From an uncultured Candidatus Saccharibacteria bacterium (GTDB lineage: Bacteria > Patescibacteriota > Doudnabacteria > UBA920), in assembly GCA_964504715.1 (NCBI GenBank), contig CAZDEP010000001.1, positions 16,830 to 80,829 of the forward strand: a stretch of DNA of 64,000 nucleotides, written 5' to 3'. The position numbers and the translations under genes are program-made. Position 1 is the first letter of the stretch. Each line of letters begins with the position of its first letter. Positions 5,327 to 62,949 of the stretch are shown here, piece by piece. The notes under the pieces are model-generated. The model was given only the letters and a program-made list of their open reading frames with translations, was not told the DNA's origin and did no database searches.

Positions 5327-6409
5327 ATGGTTTTAATTGAACTAAACAAAGTAAAAAATATTATAAATTCCAGCTCTTATCCTTTAGATTTAAAGGATAA
5401 GCTAATTTCAATTTTGCCCCATTTGGAAAAACATACTTTAACTGGTTTTGGAAAAGAATTGGACACGACGGATTCAAGCCTCGTTGCTAAATTATTGGCC
5501 ACTAAGTGGGAAGAATTCGGTGTTATTTTGGAAGGGGTTAAAAGGTTGGAGCAGGATTATTTTAATTCTTTTATGGCAAAATTGGAACAAGCAAGAAAAA
5601 GTCTTAAAGAGGAAGACAAAATTCATTTTTTATACCTAGTGTTGGATGTTAGGCCTTTAATATCTTCCGGGCAACAATCACCCCCCATAGACCAGTTGAA
5701 TAAAATACTTGATTATGAAATAAATTTATTTTGGCATTTGCCCAAATCTGAGGTTATATATTTGCTTCAAAATCATTTACTTTTTCTGGAATCCGAGGTC
5801 GATTTACTTAGGCATGTTCAGGCTGCGGTATGGGAAAATGATTGGGATTATACGAAAGACTTCGAAAAAACATTTTCGGATTGCATTCTCCACAATAAGG
5901 AAATTTTAGGGTCAAAAGAACCTCATAGTGTTTCAGATTGGATAAAGTTTTACTTTGAATCCGGTTTACAAAAAACCAATCAAATAAATACCATGCAGGT
6001 TGCGGAGTATTTATTCAAAAATCGACAAGTGCAAAGGTTGAGTGAGCGAGAAAAGAGAACTTTGTCGCAGGTACTAAAGCTCTTGGCGTGGCTGAAGGAT
6101 CCGCAACTCGACGAACTGGAAGTTTTAAAATATAGAGAGGGGTTGAGGAATGTGGAGGCAGAAGAACTGGAAGAAGGCATTATTTCACTAATGAGCCGCG
6201 AGCCTGAGGATAAAAAGTTACAAAATGTGGATTTCGTTGTAAAGAAAAAGAATTTAGAAGTTGAGGTAGTGCCCGGGCTGAATTGGGGGGATGTGAGTCC
6301 GCAGCCGGTTAGGAAATTGCCGCCGGTGCCGCCAAGGCCTTCGGTGGATATAGAAAAAAAGCTCGCGGAGTTGAAAAGCAAGGCGCAAAAAAACAGTAGC
6401 AGGCCGTGA
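5327..6409 (+). CDS. Hypothetical Leu-rich protein with a Pro-rich C-terminal tail, inside the T4SS-like cluster
   Basis: Intact 360-aa ORF immediately downstream of the VirB6-like gene; no recognised motif. Confidence 0.35.
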   Translation: MVLIELNKVKNIINSSSYPLDLKDKLISILPHLEKHTLTGFGKELDTTDSSLVAKLLATKWEEFGVILEGVKRLEQDYFNSFMAKLEQARKSLKEEDKIHFLYLVLDVRPLISSGQQSPPIDQLNKILDYEINLFWHLPKSEVIYLLQNHLLFLESEVDLLRHVQAAVWENDWDYTKDFEKTFSDCILHNKEILGSKEPHSVSDWIKFYFESGLQKTNQINTMQVAEYLFKNRQVQRLSEREKRTLSQVLKLLAWLKDPQLDELEVLKYREGLRNVEAEELEEGIISLMSREPEDKKLQNVDFVVKKKNLEVEVVPGLNWGDVSPQPVRKLPPVPPRPSVDIEKKLAELKSKAQKNSSRP

Positions 6410-6688
6410 GAAGCAGGAAGCAAGAAGTAAGTATTAAGAAATAAGAGAAAAGAGAGAAATAAATTTAAATGAAATCTTGGATACCCAAAGGGAAAAGCTT
6501 TAAATGGTATCACAAAAAGAAAAAGCCCCCGATGCGGACGAAACCGCATAAGGGTCTTTCTCATGGTGATATAGTTATTATAACAGGAAAAAGAAAGCTG
6601 TCAAGCCATACTTGAAATTCATAAAATATGCAGCAATTGGAAATCAACAAAATACACCCTGTGAAATAATTTCAAATTTTTTCTTGTT

Positions 6689-8197: not shown

Positions 8198-8650
8198 ATG
8201 CAATATCCGGTACCACAATTCACCGATGTAGAGGACAAGCTCATAGGGCCTTTGGGCGCTAAGCAGTTTTTTATTGTTTTCGCAGCGGGCATCCTTATTT
8301 TTGCCGGATATTCCGCCACCAAAAGCATAGTAGCTCTCATTTTGCTGATTGTAATTTTCGGCTTGCCGGCTTTGGGTCTGGCGTTTGCCAAAATCAACGG
8401 CAGGCCCGCTTACAGGCAGCTTGGCTTTTTAATGTCTTTTTTTACCGCGCCCAAAAAACTGATTTTCCATAAAGAAGCGGTAAATTTTTCCCAAGAGACC
8501 AAAATGAAGGACATAAAGCTGGAAACGCAAGATACGGGGCCGGTTGAATCAAAAGAAACCACCCAGCAAAGGCTAAAAACAGTCCAGGAGCTATTAAGGA
8601 AACAGCAGGAAGAGGAAGAGATGCTTATTGACAAAATTGACCATAATTAA
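8198..8650 (+). CDS. PrgI-family (VirB3-analogous) small membrane protein of Gram-positive-type T4SS
   Basis: N-terminus VPQFTDVEDKLIGPLGAKQFFIVFAAGILIF matches the PrgI consensus (vp.di..EDKi.GPLtlRQf), followed by two TM helices. It sits directly upstream of VirB4, as in conjugation operons. Confidence 0.6.
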   Translation: MQYPVPQFTDVEDKLIGPLGAKQFFIVFAAGILIFAGYSATKSIVALILLIVIFGLPALGLAFAKINGRPAYRQLGFLMSFFTAPKKLIFHKEAVNFSQETKMKDIKLETQDTGPVESKETTQQRLKTVQELLRKQQEEEEMLIDKIDHN

Positions 8651-8744
8651 AAAATTGACAAAATTATGAAGCAGAAAATTAAGTCCTAAAGCAAAAAGCA
8701 ATTTTGTCATTTATGTCAATTTTTTAAATTTTGTCAATATTTAT

Positions 8745-11770: not shown

Positions 11771-11860
11771 TTGACATAATTGACAAAATTTAAATAATTG
11801 ACAAGATTGGGATTCGAAATTTTGCTCAATTTTGTTCAATTATGTCATTTTTGTCAATTT
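11771..11860. promoter_or_regulatory. Dyad-symmetric array of TTGACA-like repeats (about 3 forward, 4 reverse) upstream of the 970-aa gene
   Basis: ttgacataattgacaaaatttaaataattgacaag ... tttgctcaattttgttcaattatgtcatttttgtcaattttt. Similar arrays are at 8655-8740, 55519-55560 and 60705-60750. Confidence 0.45.
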
Positions 11861-11864
11861 TTTT

Positions 11865-18073: not shown

Positions 18074-18102
18074 AAATTTTTTAATATTTTATAACTTTTC
18101 TC

Positions 18103-18138
18103 CCCATAGGCTAATTCGGGCGAATTAGCCTATGGGGT
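18103..18138. repeat. About 30-bp perfect palindrome, copy 1 (ccccataggctaattcgggcgaattagcctatgggg)
   Basis: A near-identical copy in inverted orientation (centre ggc versus ccc) is at 22584-22620. Together they bracket a 4.4-kb cassette between the convergent radA and recG genes. Confidence 0.6.
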
Positions 18139-22583: not shown

Positions 22584-22620
22584 GCCTATAGGCTTATTCG
22601 CCCGAATTAGCCTATGGTAG
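22584..22620. repeat. About 30-bp palindrome, copy 2 (cctataggcttattcgcccgaattagcctatgg), inverted relative to copy 1
   Basis: See 18103-18138. It lies just downstream of the recG stop on the minus strand. Confidence 0.6.
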
Positions 22621-29398: not shown

Positions 29399-29624
29399 GA
29401 AATAAGAAGTATGAATTAAGAAGTAAGGAAGATAGAAGAACTAGAATTAGGCTAAAATATCCAATACCCAATTACCAATATCCAATCGAACTAAAAAATA
29501 TGATAATTAAAGTTTAACAAATTTAAGGCAAAAGTCCTATAAAGCAAAAAGTTTTTTTGCAAAAAAAAGCGCCCGGCAGGGGTAGCTTTACACAAATGCC
29601 CAAATTGGATCAAAAAGCGGAAAT

Positions 29625-32483: not shown

Positions 32484-32969
32484 ATGAATAATCCCATCCA
32501 AAAATCAGAAGACGAAAATAAGGCTTATGACTATGCCATGTTTTTACTGAATATCCGCCTTAGGACCGAAGGGGAATTAAGAGAAAAAATGAGAAGTAAG
32601 AAGTATGAAGACAGAATTATGGACGAAGTTATTAGGCGATTGAAAGAATTACATTACATAGACGACCAGAGGTTTGCGGAAGTGTATTTGGAAAATTTAA
32701 AAAAATACAAGTCGTGGGGCTATTTTGGGATAAAGAAAAAGTTTATGGAAAAAAAGCTGCCGCGGGAAATTATTGAAAATGTTTTAGCGGAGGGGATGAC
32801 GGAAGAAGAGGAATTGGAGATTGCGAAGAAGTTTTTAAAGAAGCAAAATTCCCTCCCCTTGAGGGGGAGGGATAAGGGTGGGGTGAGTCGTGAAGATAAG
32901 TCAAGGCTGGCTAGAAAACTCGCGGCGAAAGGGTTTAGGGGCAACGTGGTAGCTAAGCTGATATTTTAA
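32484..32969 (+). CDS. recX: Recombination regulator RecX
   Basis: KAYDYAMFLLNIRLRTEGELREKMRSKKYEDRIMDEVIRRLKELHYIDDQRFAEVYLENL is the RecX helical-repeat signature. The C-terminal part carries an in-frame GC-rich palindrome at 32850-32870. Confidence 0.7.
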   Translation: MNNPIQKSEDENKAYDYAMFLLNIRLRTEGELREKMRSKKYEDRIMDEVIRRLKELHYIDDQRFAEVYLENLKKYKSWGYFGIKKKFMEKKLPREIIENVLAEGMTEEEELEIAKKFLKKQNSLPLRGRDKGGVSREDKSRLARKLAAKGFRGNVVAKLIF

Positions 32970-33910: not shown

Positions 33911-33982
33911 AAAACTTGAATTAAGAAGAATGAAGTAAGAATTATGATTCGATTCCTTACTTCTAAATACTTACTTCTTACT

Positions 33983-34703: not shown

Positions 34704-34778
34704 TTACCGCAGATTTGTGTGAGAAAGAAACCAAAAAACAATCTAACCCTCTCCTCCCAAGGAGAGGGGTAATAATGT

Positions 34779-37175
34779 ATGGGATTTACAGAAAATTTAC
34801 AACAAAAAGTAAACAATTTCCTCGATACCCGCTATATCCACCGCCTGGAAAATAAGATAGCGCTTATTGCCAAAGAGCGAGAGGAGCTAAAAAGCTGGAG
34901 TGAAAAAGAGCTGAGGCTGGCGGCTTTGGCATTTAAGGATGACCTAAAAAAAGGCAAGACTTTGGACGATATTTTGGTCCCGGCTTTTGCCGTAGCCAAT
35001 GAGGCCGCAAGGCGCGTACTTGGCCAGGTGCCCTTTGATGTGCAGATCTTGGGCGGCATAGTCATCCATATGGGCAAGGTTGCCGAAATGAAGGCCGGCG
35101 AGGGCAAAACCCTAACCGAAACCATGCCCGTATATTTAAACGCGCTTTTGGGCAGGGGCGTGCACATTGTGACGACCAACGATTATTTGGCCGAGCGGGA
35201 CTCTAAGTGGATGGGCAAACTTTACGACCTTTTGGGATTGAGCGTGGGGTATGTAACATCCGCCATGAAGTCCGAGCAAAGGCGCAAAGCGTATGCGTGC
35301 GACATAACTTACGTTACCAACCAGGAAATCGGCTTTGATTATTTGCGCGACAATTTGGTGTTTTCCAAAGTCGACAGGGTCTTAAGGCCCGAGCATCCTT
35401 TGCATTTTGGCATAGTGGATGAAATAGATTCCATATTAATAGATGAGTCGCGTACGCCGCTGATTATTGCCCAAGCTTTAAAAGAGGAGAGGGATTACTA
35501 TGACCAATTCAGCAAAATTGCAGCGGGACTAAAAGAAGGCGAAGATTTTGAAGTCGACTATAAGAATAAAAACGCCAAGATGACGGAAGGGGGCCTGGAC
35601 AGAGTCGAGAAAATTTTGGGTGCCCCGGTGTTTTCCGCCGACAATCCCATGGCGGCGTTTTACTTGGACGTGTCTTTAAGGGCGCGCGTGCTGTTTGAGA
35701 AAGACCGGGATTATATTATTTCTGCAGACGGAGTGGAAATTGTGGATGAATTCACCGGCCGTGTTTTGCCGGGGAGGAGGTTTAGCGACGGCGTGCACCA
35801 GGCGATTGAAGCCAAGGAAAAGGTGAAAGTCAAAGAGGCCGACCGGACCGCCGCCAGCATTACTTTCCAGAATTTTTTCCCGCTTTACGAAAAATTTTCG
35901 GGTATGTCGGGCACGGTTATGCGCGCCCGCGACGAGTTTAACCAGGTCTATAAACTTGATGTGGTTCAAATCCCCACCAACCGTCCCTTGGCGCGCATTG
36001 AGCATAATGACTTGTTTTTTAAAACGCAAAAAGGAAAGTTTTTGGGTTTAATGAAAAAAGTCCGGCACATTCACCAAAAGGGCCAGCCGCTTTTGGTAGG
36101 CGCGCGCAATGTGGAAACCGCCCACGCGGTGGCGGAAATGTTTGAAAACGAAGGGCTGCCGTTCCAACTTTTGACCGCCAGCGACCATAAAGCCGAGGCG
36201 GAAAAAATCGCCAAAGCGGGCGCGGAGGGTATGATAACCATTGCTACCAACATGGCAGGCCGCGGTACGGATATTATGCTGGGGGCTGGCGTTGAAAAGC
36301 TGGGCGGCCTGTTTGTAATTGGTACCGAACGCCATGAATCCCGGCGCATAGACGACCAGCTGGCCGGGCGCAGCGGCCGGCAGGGCGAAGCGGGCGAGTC
36401 CGAGTTCCTTATTTCCATGGAAGACGAAATAATGATGCTTTTTGGCAGCCAAAAAATAATTGATGCCATGGAAGAGTATGACCTGCCCGAAGACGAATAT
36501 ATTTCCGGCCCCTCTTTGGACAAAGCGTTCGCCCAGGCGCAGGATTTTATAGAAAGCAAAAATTATGACAGCCGGATTTACCTTTATAAGTACGACAGCG
36601 TAACCAATTACCAGCGTTTGGAAGTCTACAAACTGCGGGACGGTCTGCTGGAAAATCCGGAAGGTTTTAACAATTTTGCCGTGCAGGCGGTGGAAGAAAC
36701 GGTGGGGAGGATTTTTGCACTCGCCGATCCGGCCGCCGTTGCCCGGCGGTTAAAAGAAATTTTTGGCGTGGGTATTGAAAGCCAAAATTTGGCTTTCTTA
36801 CAAAAAGAGCCGGGGATGGGCGAGACTTTTAACGAACTGTTGAATCCTTTTTATAAGTCGCCAAAGGCAGAAGTTTTAAAACAGGCGGCGGCGCAAGCGG
36901 CTATGGAGGCGGGGAGTCGGCTGGAAAAGATTTTTTCCGATCCGGAAGTTTATAAGGCTTCCCAGGCGCTGGTTCTGGAAATTATCGACAATAACTGGAG
37001 CCGACATTTGGAGTTGGTGGAAATCCTTAAAGAAGAATCCGGATTGTTTTCTTACGCCTCGCAGGATCCGCTCATTGACTATATTTTGGAAAGCAAAAAG
37101 TTGTTTGAGCATATGGGAGATAGCATACAAGAGCAGTTTCTTCAAACGGTGTTTGGGCGTTTGTCGCGATCCTAG
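34779..37175 (+). CDS. secA: Preprotein translocase ATPase SecA (short form, ~800 aa)
   Basis: DEAD-motor motifs: MKAGEGKTL (Walker A), TNDYLAERD, IVDEIDSILIDE (Walker B), TNMAGRGTDI. Confidence 0.9.
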   Translation: MGFTENLQQKVNNFLDTRYIHRLENKIALIAKEREELKSWSEKELRLAALAFKDDLKKGKTLDDILVPAFAVANEAARRVLGQVPFDVQILGGIVIHMGKVAEMKAGEGKTLTETMPVYLNALLGRGVHIVTTNDYLAERDSKWMGKLYDLLGLSVGYVTSAMKSEQRRKAYACDITYVTNQEIGFDYLRDNLVFSKVDRVLRPEHPLHFGIVDEIDSILIDESRTPLIIAQALKEERDYYDQFSKIAAGLKEGEDFEVDYKNKNAKMTEGGLDRVEKILGAPVFSADNPMAAFYLDVSLRARVLFEKDRDYIISADGVEIVDEFTGRVLPGRRFSDGVHQAIEAKEKVKVKEADRTAASITFQNFFPLYEKFSGMSGTVMRARDEFNQVYKLDVVQIPTNRPLARIEHNDLFFKTQKGKFLGLMKKVRHIHQKGQPLLVGARNVETAHAVAEMFENEGLPFQLLTASDHKAEAEKIAKAGAEGMITIATNMAGRGTDIMLGAGVEKLGGLFVIGTERHESRRIDDQLAGRSGRQGEAGESEFLISMEDEIMMLFGSQKIIDAMEEYDLPEDEYISGPSLDKAFAQAQDFIESKNYDSRIYLYKYDSVTNYQRLEVYKLRDGLLENPEGFNNFAVQAVEETVGRIFALADPAAVARRLKEIFGVGIESQNLAFLQKEPGMGETFNELLNPFYKSPKAEVLKQAAAQAAMEAGSRLEKIFSDPEVYKASQALVLEIIDNNWSRHLELVEILKEESGLFSYASQDPLIDYILESKKLFEHMGDSIQEQFLQTVFGRLSRS

Positions 37176-37798: not shown

Positions 37799-39286
37799 AT
37801 GACTTTTGAATTTTTATCTCTAACTGACTTACGCAAGCTTTTAGACACCAAACAGGTTTCGTCTGTCGAACTGACGAAATATTTTTTGGAGCGCATAAAA
37901 AAGTATGACAAGGAACTCAATTCCTTCATTACCGTTTGCGAAGAGGAGGCCCTTAAGCAGGCCAAGGACGCTGATGATTTTATAAATAGTCCCGGAGAAA
38001 ATCCTTTTCTTTGCGGGATTCCGTATGCGGCCAAAGACCTGTTCTGCACCAACGGAATACGCACCACCGCAGCTTCCAAAATTTTAGATAACTACATACC
38101 GCCCTACGATTCGACCGTCATTGCCAAATTAAAAGAGCAAAAGGCCGTATTGGTCGGCAAAACCAATTTGGACCAGTTTGCACACGGGTCTTCGGGCGAA
38201 ACGTCCGCTTACGGCCCGACCAAAAACCCCTGGGATAAAACCCGCATGCCGGGCGGTTCTTCTTCGGGCTCGGCTTCCGCCGTTGCGGCGGGCCTGGTGC
38301 CATGGGCCACGGCCACAGAAACCGGCGGCAGCATCCGCCAGCCGGCATCCTTAACCGGGCTTTCCGGCTGGAAACCCACCTACGGCCGAGTAAGCCGCTA
38401 CGGCGTTGTGGCCATGGGTTCATCGCTCGATTCAATTGGCGCCATGGCGGGGAGCGTGGAGGAATTGGCCTATTTGGCAGAATTTATGTCGGGTCGAGAT
38501 GAAAAAGATTCCACCACAGGTCCTACTGAAGTTCCGCGTTATGCATCTTTGCTGTCAAAAGATATTAAGGGCCTGAAAGTTGGGATCCCGAAGGAATATT
38601 TTGTGGAAGGCATGGAGGCGGACGTAAAAGCGCGGGTGTTTGAAGCCATAAAAGAATTGGAAAAACTGGGCGCTAAACTTTACGACGTAAGTTTGCCCAA
38701 CACCAAATACGGTTCTTTGGTTTACGCCATAGTCTGTCCGTCCGAGGTCTCTTCCAATTTAATGCGCTACGACGGCATTCGTTTTGGTTATACATCGAAA
38801 GAAGCAAAAAATTTAATGGAAGTTTACGCCAAAAGCCGGGCGGAAGGTTTTGGCAATGAAGCCAAAAGGCGGATTATGACGGGCACGTACGTTCTTTCCG
38901 CCGGGTATTTTGACGCCTACTATAAAAAGGCGCAAAAAGTTAGAAGGCTGATAGTCAATGAATTCGAAGAAGTTTTTAAAACTGTGGATGTGCTGGCCTG
39001 CCCGTCTTCCCCAAACGTGGCTTCGACTTTAGGCAAGGCGGCGGAAAATCCGCTGCACGGCTACATTGCCGACCAGTTGAACATTCCGGGCAGCTTGGCC
39101 GGCTTGCCTGCGCTTTCGGTCCCGTGCGGTTTTGGCAAACCCAGCGAGGGTGCTTCGCCCTCCATGGACGGCCTGCCCGTGGGCTTACAAATTATTGGCC
39201 CGCAGTGGGGGGAGCAAACGGTATTTAACGTCGGCCACGCGTATCAAAGCGTGACGGATTGGCATAAGAAACACCCCTCAATTTAG
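37799..39286 (+). CDS. gatA: Asp/Glu-tRNA amidotransferase subunit A (amidase signature family)
   Basis: Amidase signature GGSSSGSASAVAAG with catalytic Ser-cisSer-Lys context (KDLFCT...GGSSGGS). Confidence 0.9.
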   Translation: MTFEFLSLTDLRKLLDTKQVSSVELTKYFLERIKKYDKELNSFITVCEEEALKQAKDADDFINSPGENPFLCGIPYAAKDLFCTNGIRTTAASKILDNYIPPYDSTVIAKLKEQKAVLVGKTNLDQFAHGSSGETSAYGPTKNPWDKTRMPGGSSSGSASAVAAGLVPWATATETGGSIRQPASLTGLSGWKPTYGRVSRYGVVAMGSSLDSIGAMAGSVEELAYLAEFMSGRDEKDSTTGPTEVPRYASLLSKDIKGLKVGIPKEYFVEGMEADVKARVFEAIKELEKLGAKLYDVSLPNTKYGSLVYAIVCPSEVSSNLMRYDGIRFGYTSKEAKNLMEVYAKSRAEGFGNEAKRRIMTGTYVLSAGYFDAYYKKAQKVRRLIVNEFEEVFKTVDVLACPSSPNVASTLGKAAENPLHGYIADQLNIPGSLAGLPALSVPCGFGKPSEGASPSMDGLPVGLQIIGPQWGEQTVFNVGHAYQSVTDWHKKHPSI

Positions 39287-39311
39287 AATTATGAAGTAAG
39301 AATTAAGAATT

Positions 39312-39842
39312 ATGGACGAAATCAGAGAATTAATATTGAGAGGAGAAACCTTTCCTGCTAAGCAGGAAGTTGTTTTTGCTCCTGATTATATTTTAGATGT
39401 TGATCAGGAAACTGAGAAAGTCTTAAATCAATACCATAAAATTGGAGTAGACGCCACTAATTTAGTAGCATTAGTTGATGAACCTTTTACTCCAGAAGAG
39501 TATCGGGATGGAAAAAAGACATTGTTGTTAAAAGAAATTCCTGTAATTTCCCCAAAAGCAAGGATTCAGGAATTGGAAAATTATAGAAAGCGTTACAGGG
39601 GAATGTATGATGAAAGGAATGAAAGTTCGGGTATTTTCGTAAACATTGCTGGTACTCGGATTAAATCTCGAAAAGAAAACCCAAGAGAAGTTATGATTTT
39701 TGATTTTATTAGAACATCTAAAGGGGTGGTTGAGTGTCAGTGTTATAAATTGTTAGAAGAAGGACGTTTGAACAACGCCTTTTCTCATAGCATTAATTTT
39801 CCATATAATAGGGAATCGCTCCATGTTTATAATATGGATTAA
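39312..39842 (+). CDS. Hypothetical protein inserted between gatA and gatB
   Basis: 176-aa intact ORF with no motif; it interrupts the otherwise canonical gatCAB operon. Confidence 0.35.
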   Translation: MDEIRELILRGETFPAKQEVVFAPDYILDVDQETEKVLNQYHKIGVDATNLVALVDEPFTPEEYRDGKKTLLLKEIPVISPKARIQELENYRKRYRGMYDERNESSGIFVNIAGTRIKSRKENPREVMIFDFIRTSKGVVECQCYKLLEEGRLNNAFSHSINFPYNRESLHVYNMD

Positions 39843-39848
39843 ATAACT

Positions 39849-41441
39849 ATGAAATCTTTTCCCATATCAACCGAATACAAACCCGTAATTGGTTTTGAAA
39901 TTCACGTCCAGCTGAATACGAAGTCCAAAATGTTTGGGCGGGCGGCGAATAATCCGGACCAGAGCGTGCCGAATACGGACATAGACGAGGTCAATACCGG
40001 CCAGCCGGGGACTTTGCCTGTGGCAAACAAGGAAGCCATCCGCTTGGCCGCCATGGTGGGTTTGGCTTTGAATTGCACAATTGACGAGTGGAGCAAGTTT
40101 GACCGCAAACACTATTTTTATCCCGATTTGCCGAAAGGCTACCAAATTTCGCAGTACGACCAACCGATATCTAAGAATGGGTGGTTGGATGTTGCTGTGC
40201 CTGTCATTGCGAGGAGGAATGCATCTGACGACGAAGCAATCTTACCCCAGGAACAGATTGCTTCGGCCAGTCAAGGATCTGGCCTCGCAATGACAAAAAC
40301 TAAAAGAATCGGCATCACCCGTGCTCATTTAGAAGAAGATGCCGGGAAAAACGTGCATCCCGAGGGCTTGAATTATTCTTTGGTGGATTACAACCGCGCG
40401 GGCGCGCCCTTGCTCGAAATTGTTACGGAGCCGGAAATAGAAAGCGGCGAAGAAGCCAAGGCCTTTTTAACCGAGCTTAGAAATATTATCCGCTATTTGG
40501 GCGCATCGAGCTGCGACATGGAAAAAGGCACCATGCGCGTGGAGCCGAACATTAGCGTGCGAAAGCCCGGCGAAACCACGTTGCCGAAATACAAAGTGGA
40601 AGTTAAGAACATCAACTCCATTAAATTCGCCCAAGCCGCTATAGACTACGAAATTGCGCGGCAAACGGAAATATTAAAAGAGAACGGCGTGCCGAAGCAG
40701 GTGACCATGGGCTGGAATGAAAAGGAAAACAAAACGGTGGAGCAGAGGAGTAAGGAAGAGGCCAATGACTACCGCTACTTCCCGGACCCGGACTTGCCCG
40801 TGTTGCAGTTTACCAAAGCCTATTTGGACGATCTTCGTAATAAAATGCCGGAACTGCCCGCGCAAAAGCGCGAGCGATTTATGAGCGAATACAATTTGCC
40901 TGCGGCAGATGTGGAAAATTTAATAAACTGGAAAGAGCTGGCCGCATTTTTTGAAGATGTGGTGAGCGAGATTCAGGAGTGGAAATTAGTAGATATTGGG
41001 GGAAATTGGGATATTAATGGCACAATAAAACTGGCTGTCAATTGGTGTTTGGGCGAGTTTAGCGCGAATTTGAATCAAAATCATATAAACCCCCAAGACT
41101 CACGTGTGGACGCCGAGAATTTTGCCGAACTTTTGAAAATGATCCAGAAAGGCGAAATTTCCGGCAGTGCCGCCAAACAAGTTTTTAAAGTCATGTTTGA
41201 AAAGGGTGGCGATCCATCTAACATTGTAGAAGACCTAGGCCTTTCGCAAGTGAGCGACGAGTCGGCAATTTCTTCGGCAATCGACACTGTAATATCTAAT
41301 AACCCGAAAGCCGTAGCCGACTTTAAAGCCGGTGAGCAAAAAAGTTTTGGTTTCCTTGTGGGCCAAGCCATGAAAGAACTGAAAGGCAAGGGGAATCCGC
41401 AGGTGATAAACCAGCTTCTTAAAAAGAAGCTGGAGTATTAA
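39849..41441 (+). CDS. gatB: Asp/Glu-tRNA amidotransferase subunit B, containing a 32-codon in-frame insertion
   Basis: FQISQYDQPISKNGW ... KRIGITRAHLEEDAGK ... plus a C-terminal YqeY-like domain. The insertion lies between NGWLDVAV and KTKRIGITR (B. subtilis has only GG there, as recalled from memory). Confidence 0.9.
   Translation: MKSFPISTEYKPVIGFEIHVQLNTKSKMFGRAANNPDQSVPNTDIDEVNTGQPGTLPVANKEAIRLAAMVGLALNCTIDEWSKFDRKHYFYPDLPKGYQISQYDQPISKNGWLDVAVPVIARRNASDDEAILPQEQIASASQGSGLAMTKTKRIGITRAHLEEDAGKNVHPEGLNYSLVDYNRAGAPLLEIVTEPEIESGEEAKAFLTELRNIIRYLGASSCDMEKGTMRVEPNISVRKPGETTLPKYKVEVKNINSIKFAQAAIDYEIARQTEILKENGVPKQVTMGWNEKENKTVEQRSKEEANDYRYFPDPDLPVLQFTKAYLDDLRNKMPELPAQKRERFMSEYNLPAADVENLINWKELAAFFEDVVSEIQEWKLVDIGGNWDINGTIKLAVNWCLGEFSANLNQNHINPQDSRVDAENFAELLKMIQKGEISGSAAKQVFKVMFEKGGDPSNIVEDLGLSQVSDESAISSAIDTVISNNPKAVADFKAGEQKSFGFLVGQAMKELKGKGNPQVINQLLKKKLEY
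40201..40296. repeat. 96-bp palindromic MITE-like element inserted in-frame in gatB
   Basis: Arms tgtcattgcgagg / cctcgcaatgaca; inner arms cgacgaagcaatc / gattgcttcgg. A second copy of the same family lies intergenic at 42977-43083. Confidence 0.65.
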
Positions 41442-42976: not shown

Positions 42977-43083
42977 CTGTGTCATTGCGAGGAGACAGGG
43001 CCTAGTCTGTCGACGAAGCAATCTAGCAGTTGGGTTTATGTGAAAGATTGCTTCGGTCGTCTAACTCCCTCGCAATGACACAA
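42977..43083. repeat. Intergenic copy of the palindromic MITE-like element found in gatB
   Basis: ctgtgtcattgcgagg ... cgacgaagcaatc ... gattgcttcggtcg ... cctcgcaatgacacaa. Confidence 0.65.
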
Positions 43084-43110: not shown

Positions 43111-44136
43111 TTATTTATTCAACCACTTTCTTATTTCCTGAATTGGCGGGCGGGAGGGGCTTGATATCCAACGAATATTTTTATTCCTTTTCCACCATGT
43201 CATTTGCCGTTTGCTGTAGTGCTTAATCGCAAAAGAAAGCTGGGACACCATAGCATCGTAAGAAATTTTATTTTGAAGATACAGGGAGACAAAACGGTAT
43301 TCCAAACCGAACTGTTCAAGGCGTTTCCAGGTAAGACCATAACCGCCCCTAACCCCTCCTTTGAAAGGAGGGGAATGCAGACTCTTAACTTCTTGGATCA
43401 TACCCGCCTTAAGGCGCGCTTTTAGCCGCTTGTCGATTTTTTTATATAAATCAGCCTGGGGGATTTTTATGCCGAGCCATAGGACTTGGTTTAAGGGATC
43501 CTTCGACTCACCCTCGAGGCCGTCGGGTTCGCTCAGGATGGCGGAGCGTGGCGGAACCGGTTTGCCTGTGGTTAAAATAATTTCCAGCGCGCGAATGAGC
43601 CGTCGTTTGTTATGGCGGTCAATGGTTTTAGCCCTGGCCGGATCGAGTCGGCTAATTCCGGCGAATAAGCCGGTGGTGGAAAGTTTTTCCAGTTTCGCGC
43701 GAAGTTTTAGGTTGGGCTTTACGTCCGGCAGATTTTGGCCGTAAACCACGGCGTCTATCCAGTGGCCGGTGCCGCCGCAGAGAATGGGTAGCTTGCCGCG
43801 GCTCACGATATCATCAACTATTTTTTTTGCCCGGCTTTTAAAAAGCGCAACTGAAAATTGCCTGTGTGGATCAACAAAGTCAATTAAATGGTGGGGGATG
43901 GATTTGTAGACATACACATAATCCGAATGATCCGAATGCTGCAATCCGAATGATCCAAAAGGGGAGTGTTGCCATTGGCCTTCAATTTTCCCTGTGCCTA
44001 AGTCCATACCTTTGTAAATTTGCCGGCTGTCTACGGAAATTATTTCGCCATTAAAACGCTTGGCCAGCTTGACGGCCAATTCGGATTTGCCCGAGGAAGT
44101 GGGGCCGACAATAATTAATAGCTTGTAGGGAGTCAT
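43111..44136 (-). CDS. miaA: tRNA dimethylallyltransferase MiaA
   Basis: P-loop IIVGPTSSGKSELAVKLA, then SVDSRQIYKGMDLGTGK, then PHHLIDFVDP. It carries an in-frame palindrome (43354-43374) and a 3x tandem repeat (43905-43950). Confidence 0.85.
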   Translation of the reverse strand: MTPYKLLIIVGPTSSGKSELAVKLAKRFNGEIISVDSRQIYKGMDLGTGKIEGQWQHSPFGSFGLQHSDHSDYVYVYKSIPHHLIDFVDPHRQFSVALFKSRAKKIVDDIVSRGKLPILCGGTGHWIDAVVYGQNLPDVKPNLKLRAKLEKLSTTGLFAGISRLDPARAKTIDRHNKRRLIRALEIILTTGKPVPPRSAILSEPDGLEGESKDPLNQVLWLGIKIPQADLYKKIDKRLKARLKAGMIQEVKSLHSPPFKGGVRGGYGLTWKRLEQFGLEYRFVSLYLQNKISYDAMVSQLSFAIKHYSKRQMTWWKRNKNIRWISSPSRPPIQEIRKWLNK

Positions 44137-45767: not shown

Positions 45768-45850
45768 TCTCTACGAACTACGAACTGAGTGCGAACTTAC
45801 GAACATCCCGTTTCGTATATTTCGTAAAAAGTTCGTAGTTCGTAGAAAAA
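45768..45850. repeat. About 83-bp structured repeat, copy A (outer 15-bp arms ctacgaactacgaac / gttcgtagttcgtag); it is the inverted partner of copy B
   Basis: tctctacgaactacgaac-tgagtgcgaacttacgaacatcccgtttcgtatatttcgtaaaaa-gttcgtagttcgtag. The reverse complement of the inner 45 bp is found exactly in copy B. Confidence 0.7.
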
Positions 45851-45855
45851 TTTAT

Positions 45856-46911
45856 ATGAAAAACAAAATAATCTTCCTTTCCCTTATTTTTTTAGCGGCT
45901 TCGTGCAACCCGTTTAAGCAGCCGCAAATTGCCGGCGTGGCCAAATCAACGAACGGCGGCGTGGACTGGCAAGCCGCCAACGCCACCAAGGAAAATTTGG
46001 GTTCAGTGGCGGGAGTCAATGTCGCCAAAATGGATTTCGACCCCCAGAACCGCGAAGTGGTGTATGTGTCGGGGTTTAACGACGGTCTTTATAAATCAAC
46101 AGATTCGGCCGGCACTTGGGAAAGGATATTGAGCAATATTTGGGTGTTTGATTTTGCCATAGACCCTTTTGATAGCAAAATTATATACGCCGGCGGTTAT
46201 TTTGGGGACAAGGGCAGCTTGGTTAAAACCCGCGACGGGGGGAAAAGTTGGGAGGAAATTTACAGCGAAGCGACGCCGCAGGTTTCGGTAAGGGGCGTGG
46301 CAATAAACCCCATTAACACCAACCAAATTGTCATAGGCACGAGCGCGGGCGGAGTTATAAAATCCAACGACGGCGGTTTGACCTGGAAGCTGGTGAAAAA
46401 TTTCGGTGAAAGGGTAAACAGGGTCTATTGGCAGAACGGGCAGGTCTACGCTTTGGTGAGGAGCAAGGGCTTGTTTAAGTCCACCAATTTGGACAGCGGG
46501 GAATTTTCCGACCTGACTTTGAGCCTGACCAAAAGCGATAATTTTTACCAAAACTTCATTGGCATAAACGATCAAAGCTTTAACCAGGCCTATATAGACA
46601 CACTGGCCCCCGGACTGATATATTTAACAGCAGGGAAAGGGTTTTTTAAAACCGTAAACGAGGGGCAAACATGGCAGAAGTTGGCGTTGCCGGGAAATTA
46701 TGACGTAAATTTGCCTGCCCGCCCGGTTGCGGTTTATAAACAATCAAGCAATATTGTAATGGTAGGCATTGGCAATGTGGTTTACAGGTCGGCCGACGGG
46801 GGCACAACCTGGCAAACGCAAAAAGTCAATTCTTTGGGTTTTGTAAATTATATATTAATCGACCCGCAGCTTTCCCAGATTGTTTATGCTGGGAATTTTG
46901 TATCACAATAA
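45856..46911 (+). CDS. BNR/Asp-box repeat lipoprotein (sialidase-like beta-propeller fold without obvious catalytic residues)
   Basis: Lipoprotein signal LSLIFLAASCNP. There are five S/T-x-D-x-G-x-T/S-W Asp-box motifs: STDSAGTW, TRDGGKSW, SNDGGLTW, VNEGQTW, SADGGTTW. Confidence 0.6.
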   Translation: MKNKIIFLSLIFLAASCNPFKQPQIAGVAKSTNGGVDWQAANATKENLGSVAGVNVAKMDFDPQNREVVYVSGFNDGLYKSTDSAGTWERILSNIWVFDFAIDPFDSKIIYAGGYFGDKGSLVKTRDGGKSWEEIYSEATPQVSVRGVAINPINTNQIVIGTSAGGVIKSNDGGLTWKLVKNFGERVNRVYWQNGQVYALVRSKGLFKSTNLDSGEFSDLTLSLTKSDNFYQNFIGINDQSFNQAYIDTLAPGLIYLTAGKGFFKTVNEGQTWQKLALPGNYDVNLPARPVAVYKQSSNIVMVGIGNVVYRSADGGTTWQTQKVNSLGFVNYILIDPQLSQIVYAGNFVSQ

Positions 46912-46985
46912 TCTCTACGAACTACGAACTTTTTTACGAAATATACGAAACGGGATGTTCGTAAGTTCGCACTCAGTTCGTAGTT
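46903..46985. repeat. About 83-bp structured repeat, copy B (inverted copy of 45768-45850)
   Basis: tctctacgaactacgaac-ttttttacgaaatatacgaaacgggatgttcgtaagttcgcactca-gttcgtagttcgtag. Confidence 0.7.
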
Positions 46986-46999
46986 CGTAGAAAATCCAT

Positions 47000-47637: not shown

Positions 47638-48852
47638 ATGATTTCCACTGTAATTATCTTTATTATCATTTTAGGCCTGCTCGTGTTTGTGCATGAGTTT
47701 GGGCATTTTTACGCGGCCAAAAAAAGCGGGATGCGAGTTTTGGAATTTGGATTTGGGTTCCCGCCAAGATTGTTGGGGGCCCAGAAAGTGAATGGAAAAT
47801 GGCGGATCGTTTGGGGCCATAAAGATCCAACGCAATCAACCTCTCCCCATCCCTCCACACATCTTGCGGAGGGAGCAAGCCAAGGTGCATCCGTTGTTTC
47901 CTCCCCCTTGAGGGGGGAGGAAGGTGGGGGTGATGATAGCACTATATATTCCATAAATGCCATTCCTCTTGGCGGGTTTGTAAAAATTTGGGGTGAAAAC
48001 AACGAATACGAAAACGATCCGCGCTCATTCATTAGCCGCCCGTTTTGGAACAGGTTTGCCACGCTTGTTGCGGGCGTGGTAATGAACGTGGTGTTGGCGT
48101 GGGTTTTACTGTCGGCCGGATTTATGGCGGGGATGCCCACAGCCGTGGAAAGTTTGGAAAGTTTGCCTAAAAGCGCCACGCTGCTAAACCCGCATGTGGG
48201 AGTGTTGGAAGTTTTGGAAAAAAGTCCTGCGCAAGCGGCGGGCCTTATGCCTGACGATTTAATTTTGGGGGTGGATGGGCAAAAGTTTTATACTGCTTCG
48301 GGATTCCAAGAATACATTCGGGCAAACAAAGGCAAAGTTTTTGAATTTAATATCCAAAGGGGCGGTGAAGAAAAAACCATCAGAGTGGAATCGTTGGCCA
48401 ACCCGGGAGAAAACGAGGGGCCCACGGGCATTGCCATAGCCGATGTGGGAAATTTAAGGTTTACGCCTTTTTATGCCGTCATATATGGCGCCAAGGCCAC
48501 GGGCATCCAGCTGTATGGCATTGGCAAGGGCTTGGTTGGGCTTTTTGGTTCCGGTATGGGGCTTAAAGCCCTGGGCGGGCCCGTTAAAATTGCACAGGTT
48601 ACGGGGCGCGCCGCGGAAATGGGCTTTATTTATCTTTTGCAGTTTACTTCCTTCCTTTCGCTAAACTTGGCAATTTTGAATATTTTGCCTTTTCCCGCGC
48701 TCGACGGCGGCAGGGTTTTGTTTTTGATAATTGAAAAAATCCGCGGGGTAAGGAATAATCCCAAAGTTGAGCAAGCCTTCAACGCCGCCGGCTTTGCGCT
48801 CCTAATTTTACTGATGATTTTAGTGACAATTAAAGATGTGAGAGGAATATAA
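47638..48852 (+). CDS. rseP: RIP metalloprotease RseP (site-2 protease, M50) with a ~50-aa insertion after the HExxH helix
   Basis: HEFGHF zinc motif, a PDZ domain (GVLEVLEKSPAQAAGLMPDDLILGVDGQ), and LNILPFPALDGG. The insertion AQKVNGKWRIVWGHKD...SSPLRGEEGGGDD precedes the conserved IPLGGFVKI. Confidence 0.85.
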   Translation: MISTVIIFIIILGLLVFVHEFGHFYAAKKSGMRVLEFGFGFPPRLLGAQKVNGKWRIVWGHKDPTQSTSPHPSTHLAEGASQGASVVSSPLRGEEGGGDDSTIYSINAIPLGGFVKIWGENNEYENDPRSFISRPFWNRFATLVAGVVMNVVLAWVLLSAGFMAGMPTAVESLESLPKSATLLNPHVGVLEVLEKSPAQAAGLMPDDLILGVDGQKFYTASGFQEYIRANKGKVFEFNIQRGGEEKTIRVESLANPGENEGPTGIAIADVGNLRFTPFYAVIYGAKATGIQLYGIGKGLVGLFGSGMGLKALGGPVKIAQVTGRAAEMGFIYLLQFTSFLSLNLAILNILPFPALDGGRVLFLIIEKIRGVRNNPKVEQAFNAAGFALLILLMILVTIKDVRGI

Positions 48853-55500: not shown

Positions 55501-55689
55501 GTGGATAATATTGGCATAATTGAACAAAATTGACAAAAATAATAAAAATGACAAAAATAAAGATAATAGGATCCAAATTTCAAATATCAAATTACCAATT
55601 TCAAATAAATTTTTAAATGGCTTAATGTCAGAAATTGGAAATTTAAGAATTAAAATTTTTTTGGAATTTGATATTTGTAATTTGAAATT

Positions 55690-61668: not shown

Positions 61669-62949
61669 AATTCGCGAAAAAAAAGAAAAACCGGCGCGCT
61701 GGTTGGCGGCCGGTTTTGTTTTGGGGCGGGGCAGGGATGGTTATCCTTTCCCCGCCTGGTAAGGGGGTTTGCCGGGATCCACGGGTGGATCCCAGTTGAA
61801 TGGTTCTGGTTCTTCGCGGTCGCAATCAACCGCGAATAAAATTTTATATTCGCTAAAGTCGTATATCATAGCCCTTGTCATAACGCCCTCCGTTATGATT
61901 TTAAGGCCATTCGCAAGCTTTTTACGTATAGTCTTAAAGCCATAAATTTTTTGTAAAAATAAAAAACCAGCCCCTTGCGGGACCGGTACTTTGTTATGGA
62001 TAATTCTCGACTAAACTCGAATATTATCAACAAAAACAAACCCAAAGCCCCTTAAGGAGGTAAGGCTAAGAAGGAGCGAGAGGTTGTTTAAGAAATTATG
62101 CATTTGTTATATTTTATCAGGCTGTGGGAGTTTGTCAAATGTGGGCGCAGATTTCACGCGGAATTACTGCAGACGCGGATACACGCGGAAGGTTATAAAT
62201 AAGGGAGCGGAGGGACTCCCTAGAGGCGATGTATAGAACATCAGCTTAGGGAATCGCTCCGCTGAGGATTAGATCCCGGTAAAAAATCTCCATCGGTCGT
62301 ACCGAGGGTTGATCTTTTCTTCCGCCTCGGGGGCGGAAGGGGGTTGGGCGGTTGCCGGCTCTTCGCCGGCGGTTTGGGTTTGGGGGCCTTCATCGGACCC
62401 TTCCCCAAAATAATTGAGTTTATTTTGGTCGGACATAAGTTTGGGCATTTTTAATTTAAAACTTGCCCAAGCTAATGGCTGCAAAACTTTTTCCTCCTTT
62501 TTTAGGGTGCCTGGTTTGCCTATTTTTAAATAAGCAAAATTACGCATCCTATTTATTGCGTTACCCCTCCCTAACCTTCCCCCTAAAGGGGAGGGAGCTT
62601 AAAAAGTATTGTGCGTTCTGTAGCGTGCCCATTTATGGGCTGGAATATATTGATGGCTGCAGCCGATAAATCGGCACACTACGTCGCATCGTTTTTATTA
62701 AAAAATAAAGGTTAATTAAAAACCCCTGCCTTTTAGGCAGGGGTTTGAGAGTTTAGATTAAACTAAAAACTCTTCCGCTGCCGGAGGCCGGGGATAATAA
62801 TAATGCTAATTATGCTTGCAGACGCGCTGATATTTGTGAACATAAACTTGTTGATAAAACTGCCCGTAAAAGGCATTTATTATGCTTATTTTAAGCACCG
62901 GAAAAAATTTTGTCAAGCAATAATTTATGGTGTAGAATAAATCAAGTCA

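Follow-up and report, generated by a model that had tools for sequence, protein, structure and literature searches.

The 64,000-nucleotide stretch of contig CAZDEP010000001.1 analysed here (the window) has a GC content of 45%, and the names of its homologues place it in Candidatus Doudnabacteria, Patescibacteria. Among its genes are recX, secA, gatB, miaA and rseP, and dispersed across it are copies of a repeat of about 37 nt, which lies in frame within recX, miaA and rseP, between genes, and as a relic in the 5' leader of secA (Table 1). The original prediction described these sites as a family of GC-rich palindromes proliferating in the housekeeping genes of an AT-rich genome. All five of the hairpin sites it listed are present. 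The base composition does not agree with an AT-rich genome, and 'palindrome' is too simple a name for the unit, in which a hairpin is followed by a mirror-image tail to make a three-part structure. Nothing observed points to a site for a restriction-modification or recombination enzyme, though no test aimed at one was made. The assignment of the sites to the BoxC/PIT/'triplex motif' (TM) class II purine-motif intrastrand triplex repeats, made from sequence, is well supported, as are the origin of the coding copies by insertion and the DNA-level nature of the repeat.

Table 1. TM units in the window and the rseP insert that holds two of them. Layouts run 5' to 3' along the unit as flank / pyrimidine arm / loop / purine arm / linker / tail / flank.
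Feature	Coordinates	Strand	Orientation and state	Layout	Sequence
recX TM unit, intact	32849..32886	+	sense; no mismatch in hairpin or tail	TT / CCCTCCCC (32851-58) / TTGA / GGGGGAGGG (32863-71) / ATAA / GGGTGGGG (32876-83) / TGA	TTCCCTCCCCTTGAGGGGGAGGGATAAGGGTGGGGTGA
secA 5' leader TM relic	34744..34769	-	hairpin and TTA linker kept; tail lost	hairpin CCCTCTCC/GGAGAGGG (34747-34768), TTA	
miaA TM unit	43338..43375	-	sense to gene (open reading frame 43111-44136, minus strand); one tail mismatch	TT / CCCCTCCT / TTCAA / AGGAGGGG / TTA / GGGGCGGT / TAT	TTCCCCTCCTTTCAAAGGAGGGGTTAGGGGCGGTTAT (coding strand)
rseP lineage-specific insert, whole	47830..47937	+	residues ~65-100, ~108 nt; inverted TM pair and spacer		
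rseP TM unit, decayed	47836..47876	-	antisense to gene; 5' member of pair		TCAACCTCTCCCCATCCCTCCacacatcttgcGGAGGGAGC
rseP TM unit, intact	47898..47933	+	sense; 3' member of inverted pair	TT / CCTCCCCC / TTGA / GGGGGGAGG / AA / GGTGGGGG / TGA	TTCCTCCCCCTTGAGGGGGGAGGAAGGTGGGGGTGA
Intergenic TM unit	62561..62597	-	one mismatch in hairpin, one in tail	CT / CCCTCCCC / TTTA / GGGGGAAGG / TTA / GGGAGGGG / TAA	

From 5' to 3' the unit consists of a pyrimidine arm, a loop, a complementary purine arm, a short linker and a G-rich tail. When the copies are aligned, similarity runs on 3' of the hairpin into this G-rich arm, which is the mirror of the purine arm with each A replaced by T or kept as A. Thus GGGTGGGG comes after GGGGAGGG, and GGTGGGGG after GGGGGAGG. 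The flanking similarity of ~20 nt (ATAAGGGTGGGGTGA) reported earlier is real and is this third arm of the motif. The canonical unit of ~37 nt reads 5'-TT CCCTCCCC TTGA GGGGGAGGG TTA GGG(A/T)GGGG TGA-3'. In the four intact copies of the window the arms are 8 nt long, the loops 4-5 nt and the linkers 2-4 nt, and the mirror tail is perfect in the recX and rseP copies, with one mismatch in each of the other two. The hairpin part alone was calculated to fold in single-stranded DNA with an energy of -9.6 to -11.8 kcal/mol in the three coding copies (-10.7 kcal/mol in recX). The units encode S-L-P-L-R-G-R-D-K-G-G-V in recX (open reading frame (ORF) 32484-32969), S-P-P-F-K-G-G-V-R-G-G-Y in miaA and S-S-P-L-R-G-E-E-G-G-G-D in rseP (ORF 47638-48852). 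As had been proposed, the ORFs are intact and the repeats do add loops to the proteins.

A scan of the window for the full motif (pyrimidine arm, loop, purine arm, linker and mirror tail, with 8-nt arms and at most one mismatch per arm) found exactly four, those of recX, rseP, miaA and the intergenic region. Shuffling the window 200 times with dinucleotides preserved gave a mean of 0.065 such motifs and never more than 1; we therefore reject a chance origin of the family, whose frequency is far above chance. Six perfect polypyrimidine/polypurine hairpins reach 6 bp or more, where the shuffles average 0.8 and none of them attains six, and a 21-mer search allowing three mismatches gave three matches where 0.00 were expected. 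Since the intergenic and coding copies have their DNA sequence in common, the family is a DNA element and not a peptide motif, as the idea of a single DNA-level repeat family supposed. The GC skew is positive throughout the window and the G-rich strand of the six copies is the plus strand in two and the minus strand in four; orientation in the window thus does not track the replication strand.

As far as sequence can tell, the mirror arrangement of purine arm and tail follows the rule by which single-stranded DNA would form an intrastrand triple helix of the purine-motif kind. We considered an alternative hairpin in which the tail pairs with the pyrimidine arm through Watson-Crick or wobble pairs and rejected it, as it leaves one to two mismatches per stem type where the mirror rule leaves none. 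A table of stem types against tail types built from regular expressions was confounded, because GGGTGGGGGTGA holds both tail patterns, and the rule was tested with 8-mers by comparing mirror with direct and upstream with downstream matches. The hairpins do not resemble intrinsic terminators: they precede a G-rich arm rather than a run of T and sit within ORFs.

The tail rule extends well beyond the window. A scan of one genome per species with the hairpin-only pattern CCYYCCCCTTNAGGGGGRRGG gave at least 120 loci; the matches listed include Alpha-, Beta-, Gamma- and Deltaproteobacteria, Nitrospirae, Planctomycetes, Atribacterota and Deinococcus as well as Bacillota, Chloroflexi, Elusimicrobia, Spirochaetes and Peribacteria. 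A perfect mirror tail, which was not part of the pattern, lies within 40 nt downstream in 86 of the 127 usable matches listed and upstream in one. The tail covaries with the stem, GGTGGGGG accompanying CCTCCCCC, GGGTGGGG accompanying CCCTCCCC and GGATGGGG accompanying CCTTCCCC. Among the listed matches from other phyla, most copies are intergenic. ORF-based assignment to genes is unreliable at the high-GC loci, where seven of the ten ORFs tested had Pfam domains; in these ten the hairpin is clearly genic only in L003 (Mfd), L004 (SdhA), L050 (a histidine-kinase linker) and the planctomycete L068, and only the last, in a Mur ligase linker, has an intact unit with its tail. In Rhizobiales (L025, L032, L042, L085 and L112) a second covarying GC hairpin lies between the purine arm and the tail. 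These variant units occur as inverted pairs ~96 nt apart and in arrays with a period of ~300 nt.

The coding habit reappears in metagenomes. Among the matches listed from a full-motif scan, 22 of 46 on low-GC contigs lie inside ORFs, and Pfam confirmed all ten of the unit-bearing ORFs tested as real genes. The hosts are RseP, a release factor, a Wzy-type ligase, PGA_cap, a glycosyltransferase, DNA polymerase I (PolA), tRNA-guanine transglycosylase, ArgRS, transketolase (two copies) and PurH. When these genes were compared with the window by tblastn, RseP alone matched. Most of the coding copies listed are antisense and give the peptide SPLPNPPPQGEG or HPSLTLPLKGRE. Conserved flanks bound the listed units as TT...TGA, 37 nt in all, with a linker that is mostly TTA; the 5' TT is present in 38-40 of 44 copies and the 3' GA in 38-44 of 44. 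The linker and the TT...GA flanks are conserved across organisms, though the search pattern did not force them.

Comparison with orthologues shows how the coding copies arose. The loops are absent from most Patescibacteria orthologues of RecX, MiaA and RseP and are therefore derived insertions, as originally proposed. Eight RecX orthologues (P0001-6, P0008 and P0009) carry LPLRGRDKGGV, and the next relatives (69-72% identity), together with most other Patescibacteria, are 8-10 residues shorter at this point. Comparison of the window with L125 and L126 gives 95-97% nucleotide identity for the recX unit (third positions 85-92%), whereas the flanking third positions are 45-65% identical. The unit is absent from the recX orthologue of the related locus L127, which has GTAAGAAGTAAGAAT at the insertion site. 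The sequence LSESSKTKTLN in RecX P0007 and P0018 was considered as a decayed unit and discarded, because the DNA shows a different hairpin, CCCTGAAC..GTTCAGGG. In MiaA the common state, seen in many orthologues, is LH-xxGLSWKRLESFG without an insert, and the lineage of the window inserts SPPFKGGVRGGY. The AlphaFold model of MiaA shows this insert (residues 255-269) as a coil between two helices, with a predicted local distance difference test (pLDDT) score below that of its flanks. The net insertion in recX and miaA (~24-33 nt) equals the unit itself. Two more segments of the MiaA model have a pLDDT below 50 (residues 46-68 and 198-211, e.g. QWQHSPFGSFGLQHSDHSDYVYVY) and, in the model, look like additional lineage-specific insertions.

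The rseP insert is larger. The common state of RseP is VWGHKPP-LDxEQTVYSIN, and the protein in the window has ~36 extra residues between the WRIVWG and TIYSINAIPLGG strands. The original prediction of a larger insertion here was right in kind; its length is ~108 nt rather than ~150, and the extra CCCTCC..GGAGGG hairpin noticed within it is a decayed unit in the opposite orientation, of which just that hairpin remains. The DNA of four orthologues shows two units with a spacer of ~27 nt, the first antisense and the second sense. In its intact form, to which the decayed copy of the window aligns, the antisense unit has 41 nt (TCACCCCTCCCTAACCCTCCCCCTCAAGGGGAGGGAAT) and encodes SPLPNPPPQGEG; it is found at the same position in L121, L123 and L124, where it is 100% identical, although third codon positions outside the insert are 37-42% identical and thus saturated. 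L123 also has an intact sense unit, with one linker difference, while in L124 the sense unit is half-decayed and in L121, the closest relative (86% protein identity), its tail is lost and its hairpin degraded. In the window it is the sense unit that is perfect. Further copies occur in gatB and holB of related Doudnabacteria-like contigs, and gatB of L122 has a unit pair arranged as in rseP.

At secA the prediction of a related upstream copy holds for the hairpin, which has decayed to a relic without a tail. Its purine arm, GGAGAGGGG, reads on the plus strand and lies 9 nt before the secA ATG at 34779, a spacing that makes it probably the Shine-Dalgarno sequence (ribosome-binding site) of secA. 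The leader of secA in L127 (8808-8840, minus strand) has an intact BoxC-like unit, CCCTCTCC-TGGCAA-GGAGAGGG-TGG-GGTGAGGT. In the window (region 34747-34781) the leader hairpin CCCTCTCC-TCCCAA-GGAGAGGG encloses the candidate Shine-Dalgarno sequence and could modulate translation of secA.

Copies are either near-perfect or visibly decaying. Such a pattern suits a multi-copy element whose copies are held uniform through copying or conversion, or a motif under direct selection, and does not fit a drifting peptide loop. In the sense direction the canonical unit is closed in every frame, by the TGA of the loop, the TAG across the linker or the terminal TGA, whereas two of the antisense frames are open. 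All three sense copies in the window read in one sense frame, the only one they could have opened, and the sole stop of this frame is the terminal TGA. A 4-nt linker removes that stop in recX and a 2-nt linker does so in rseP, while miaA has TAT where the TGA would stand. The sense copy in gatB of L122 uses another frame and has TCGA, not TTGA, in its loop. As each sense copy has a change that removes the stop, we regard the intact ORFs as the outcome of a survivorship filter.

The loops that received the unit have also been used by others. At least three other types of insert occur at the same point of MiaA in other lineages, RecX of L249 has the hairpin CCCTGAAC..GTTCAGGG at the same loop, and GatB in the window has a 92-nt palindrome at the loop where L122 has its unit pair. 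That several unrelated small hairpins reuse the loops of RecX, MiaA, RseP and GatB points to a general process, possibly one directed by DNA structure. Small GC hairpins also sit exactly in the loop of the unit itself, one of 21 nt (GCCGGCCTGCCAAAAAGGCAG) in miaA of L121 (2300-2330 region) and one of 30 nt (CCTGTCCGCCGAAGCCTTGGCGAAGGTGGA) in recX of L248 (~1837-1866). A near-identical copy of CCTGTCCGCCGAAGCCTTGGCGAAGGTGGA trails a hairpin in an Azospirillum sdhA (L004).

The GatB palindrome is one of a second family of ~92-99 nt, with copies at 40203-40294 (in frame in gatB, encoding PVIARRNASDDEAILPQEQIASASQGSGLAMT) and 42981-43079 (intergenic, downstream of miaA). Its outer stem is GTCATTGCGAGG/CCTCGCAATGAC and its inner stem GAAGCAATCT/AGATTGCTTC, with a calculated single-stranded fold of -26.7 kcal/mol (z = -6). 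Other small repeats lie alongside. The intergenic inverted repeats at 45770-45846 and 46914-46991, another small palindromic family, share the arm TCTACGAACTACGAACT and flank the gene at 45856-46911. Perfect 17-bp palindromes, CCCCATAGGCTAATTCG/CGAATTAGCCTATGGGG, are found at gene ends (18102-18137 and 22585-22617) and are terminator-like; a stretch 76% similar to them lies inside miaA (43644-43676), and the insert ..GKLAHYGK of some MiaA orthologues may derive from a related element. AT-rich intergenic repeats on AATTGACAAAAT (8626-8739, 11772-11863 and 55524-55559), direct and inverted, stand upstream of genes and may be operator- or promoter-like sites. Purine-rich direct repeats of the GAAGTAAGAATTAAGAAG type occur at 6404-6444, 29400-29440, 32587-32627, 33912-33952 and 39280-39320, mostly at gene boundaries.

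BoxC and PIT elements are reportedly the subject of work by Bergler et al. in 1992 and by Hoyne, Edwards, Viari and Maher in 2000. The architecture was first noted in Escherichia coli, where it was called BoxC; it was found again under the name PIT elements, and Holder et al. (2015, PMC4666352) examined it as TMECO, with a 37-nt consensus of CCCTCNCCC N3-6 GGGNGAGGG N3 GGGNGAGGG and 3610 copies in 262 proteobacterial genomes. In the same study circular dichroism and nuclear magnetic resonance showed triplex formation in vitro by the single strand on its own, and none was detected in duplex DNA or in vivo; the study found no promoter or terminator activity, no effect on polymerase in vivo and no strand bias, reported inverted pairs for some copies and a link to local sequence instability, and described the copies of E. 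coli K-12 as "always located intergenically" (PMC4666352). It also states that RNA does not form purine-motif triplexes. The repeats are not peculiar to this genome: the class has been described in E. coli and in over 260 genomes (PMC4666352), and the variant is found in many phyla.

The unit in the window shares with BoxC/PIT/TMECO the order of its parts, a 3-6 nt loop, a linker of ~3 nt that is often TTA and a length of ~37 nt. Both are multi-copy, dispersed and near-identical, without strand bias and with some inverted pairs, and both have copies that are lost or mutated between relatives. Only the copy in the secA leader of L127 (CCCTCTCC..GGAGAGGG..GGTGAGG) nearly matches the TMECO consensus. 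The window stems, CCCTCCCC and CCTCCCCC (8 nt) or CCCCTCCT, do not match CCCTCNCCC (9 nt) exactly, and we accordingly place the window copies in the broader class and not in the E. coli subfamily. The host here is a bacterium of the candidate phyla radiation (CPR), and, in contrast to the intergenic TMECO, three of the four intact copies (four of six with relics) are in frame inside essential genes. The density, about one copy per 11-16 kb in the window, is roughly ten times that of E. coli K-12 (23 per 4.6 Mb). A BLAST search of E. coli genomes with the BoxC-like copy gave no match, for which the short query and the low-complexity filter are the likely causes, and so says nothing about relatedness. 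Rfam, run on the whole window at gathering thresholds, reported three tRNAs only; no known RNA family therefore covers the unit.

The behaviour of the unit recalls other small repeats. The Rickettsia palindromic elements (RPE), attributed to Ogata et al. in 2000, a work that PMC1458961 and PMC1166351 cite, are said to be small non-coding repeats in frame within housekeeping genes of a reduced genome; reportedly they are AT-richer palindromes of ~100-150 bp, specific to Rickettsia. The likeness is one of behaviour only (in-frame insertion, added surface peptides, intact ORFs and intergenic copies too), since by description RPE are longer palindromes without a triplex arm and are not known to be related to the unit in sequence, whereas the unit here has 37 nt and a non-palindromic third arm. 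Small dispersed repeats of cyanobacteria are reportedly the subject of a 2008 study by Elhai et al. MITEs, which are miniature transposable elements with inverted repeats, extend or split ORFs, for instance in Coxiella (PMC5896051). MITEs and the cyanobacterial repeats are like our unit in being very small, nested and within conserved coding sequences, but the sequences are unrelated, and neither the terminal inverted repeats nor the target-site duplications of MITEs were seen at the unit ends, where a clean empty site for comparison was not available. REP/BIME elements are mobilised by RAYT transposases, whose gene accompanies them in the genome, are extragenic and have a GTAG or CGTC tag at one end (PMC3733652). 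They too are imperfect GC-rich palindromes of 20-40 nt, highly repeated and often in inverted pairs, with a single-stranded hairpin as the presumed active form; our unit differs in its TT and GA flanks, in having no GTAG/CGTC tag and in the genic position of most window copies, and no RAYT gene was seen among the ORFs scanned, which were part of those in the 64 kb of the window.

We think it probable that this dispersed repeat of the BoxC/PIT class, about 37 nt long, is a non-autonomous DNA element, either selfish or neutral, that is copied by way of a folded single strand and filtered by selection. In this Candidatus Doudnabacteria lineage recX, miaA and rseP received their copies by insertion. 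A process acting on the folded single-stranded form would both spread the repeat and keep its copies uniform; it could be a switch of template, or gene conversion, from one copy to another at the replication fork, or the work of a single-strand transposase. The coding copies would be the survivors, those that landed in tolerant surface loops in an orientation and frame free of stops, and the encoded peptide would have no selected role. Several points tell against this explanation. No transposase or other mobilising gene was identified among the ORFs scanned, which were part of those in the 64-kb window, and none was found for the motif in E. coli (PMC4666352). No empty and filled pair with near-identical flanks was found to define the junctions or any target duplication. 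The E. coli triplex went undetected in double-stranded DNA and in vivo (PMC4666352), and it is possible that the G-rich strand folds as a G-quadruplex. Perfect conservation of loop and linker at saturated divergence could reflect a host function or a sequence-specific binding protein. The copy densities at related loci are biased, because these loci were fetched via genes already known to bear units, and most of the metagenome contigs lack a taxonomic assignment.

One rival view is that the element is actively mobile, with hairpin and third arm as the structure recognised by an HUH/Y1-type enzyme (cf. REP/RAYT and IS200/IS605), which would paste the 37-nt unit next to TT without target duplication. 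The sharp boundaries with TT and GA, the identical units in many unrelated genes and organisms, the inverted pairs and the small hairpins placed exactly in the loop, which suggest a structure-directed process, would all follow. However, no candidate enzyme has been seen here or in E. coli and no polymorphic empty site was recovered, and the TT could be part of the unit or an effect of low-GC composition; on balance we hold this to be unlikely. Somewhat harder to credit is a DNA-level function selected in the host, such as a programmed pause in replication or transcription, a hotspot of recombination or repair from which variation arises, or a site bound by a conserved protein. In its favour are units whose identity, also in loops and linkers, stays at 95-100% against saturated synonymous sites, and the unforced conservation of the TTA linker and TT...GA flanks across organisms, and Holder et al. 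tie the E. coli motif to local genome instability. Yet copies at the same site decay freely in sister lineages, most orthologues do without the unit, unrelated hairpins occupy the same sites elsewhere, the E. coli motif has no promoter, terminator or in vivo polymerase effect, and concerted evolution of a multi-copy repeat accounts for the uniformity equally well.

A role in RNA, with the hairpin or the Shine-Dalgarno-like G runs pausing ribosomes, stabilising the transcript or regulating translation, is improbable in our judgement. It draws on the sense orientation of all three intact coding copies in the window and on the secA relic, which sets the likely ribosome-binding site GGAGAGGGG inside a hairpin. 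But coding copies are mostly antisense in relatives and metagenomes, open frames explain the orientation, the third arm obeys a DNA triplex rule reported not to work in RNA, and no Rfam family matches. Selection on the protein, with functional Pro/Gly/Arg-rich loops and the DNA similarity as a by-product, seems to us barely credible. The conservation of LPLRGRDKGGV in eight RecX orthologues is in its favour, but the intergenic and 5'-leader copies share the DNA sequence, three frames or orientations of the same DNA give the unrelated peptides SPLPNPPPQGEG, HPSLTLPLKGRE and SLPLRGR.., third codon positions are as strongly conserved as the others, and most orthologues have no loop. We reject it as contradicted by conservation of the DNA that is independent of frame.

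Repeats of the BoxC/PIT/triplex-motif class were first described in the 1990s and occur widely, yet where they come from, how they spread and what they do still lack an explanation. The class itself is not new; what is new here is the coding-region habit and the CPR host. As copies in coding sequence carry a neutral yardstick in their synonymous sites, the maintenance of the motif at the DNA level becomes measurable. We put forward tentatively, and with considerable doubt, a broader proposition: that the unit is an active single-strand element recognised by its structure, or is under DNA-level selection, that it is held base-perfect in essential genes across Patescibacteria and related low-GC lineages, that it is a main source of their short protein insertions and that its loop is a preferred landing site for small palindromes. 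If this is true, some machinery copies these repeats or they serve some function, and a comparison of genomes that have units with genomes that have none could reveal which. For annotation, the stereotyped peptides (SPLPNPPPQGEG, HPSLTLPLKGRE and SLPLRGR..GGV) are a warning, as they can make unrelated proteins look falsely similar and can distort alignments. For the organisms, lineage-specific insertions in the proteins of reduced genomes have in this repeat a concrete origin, as they do in the Rickettsia palindromic elements.

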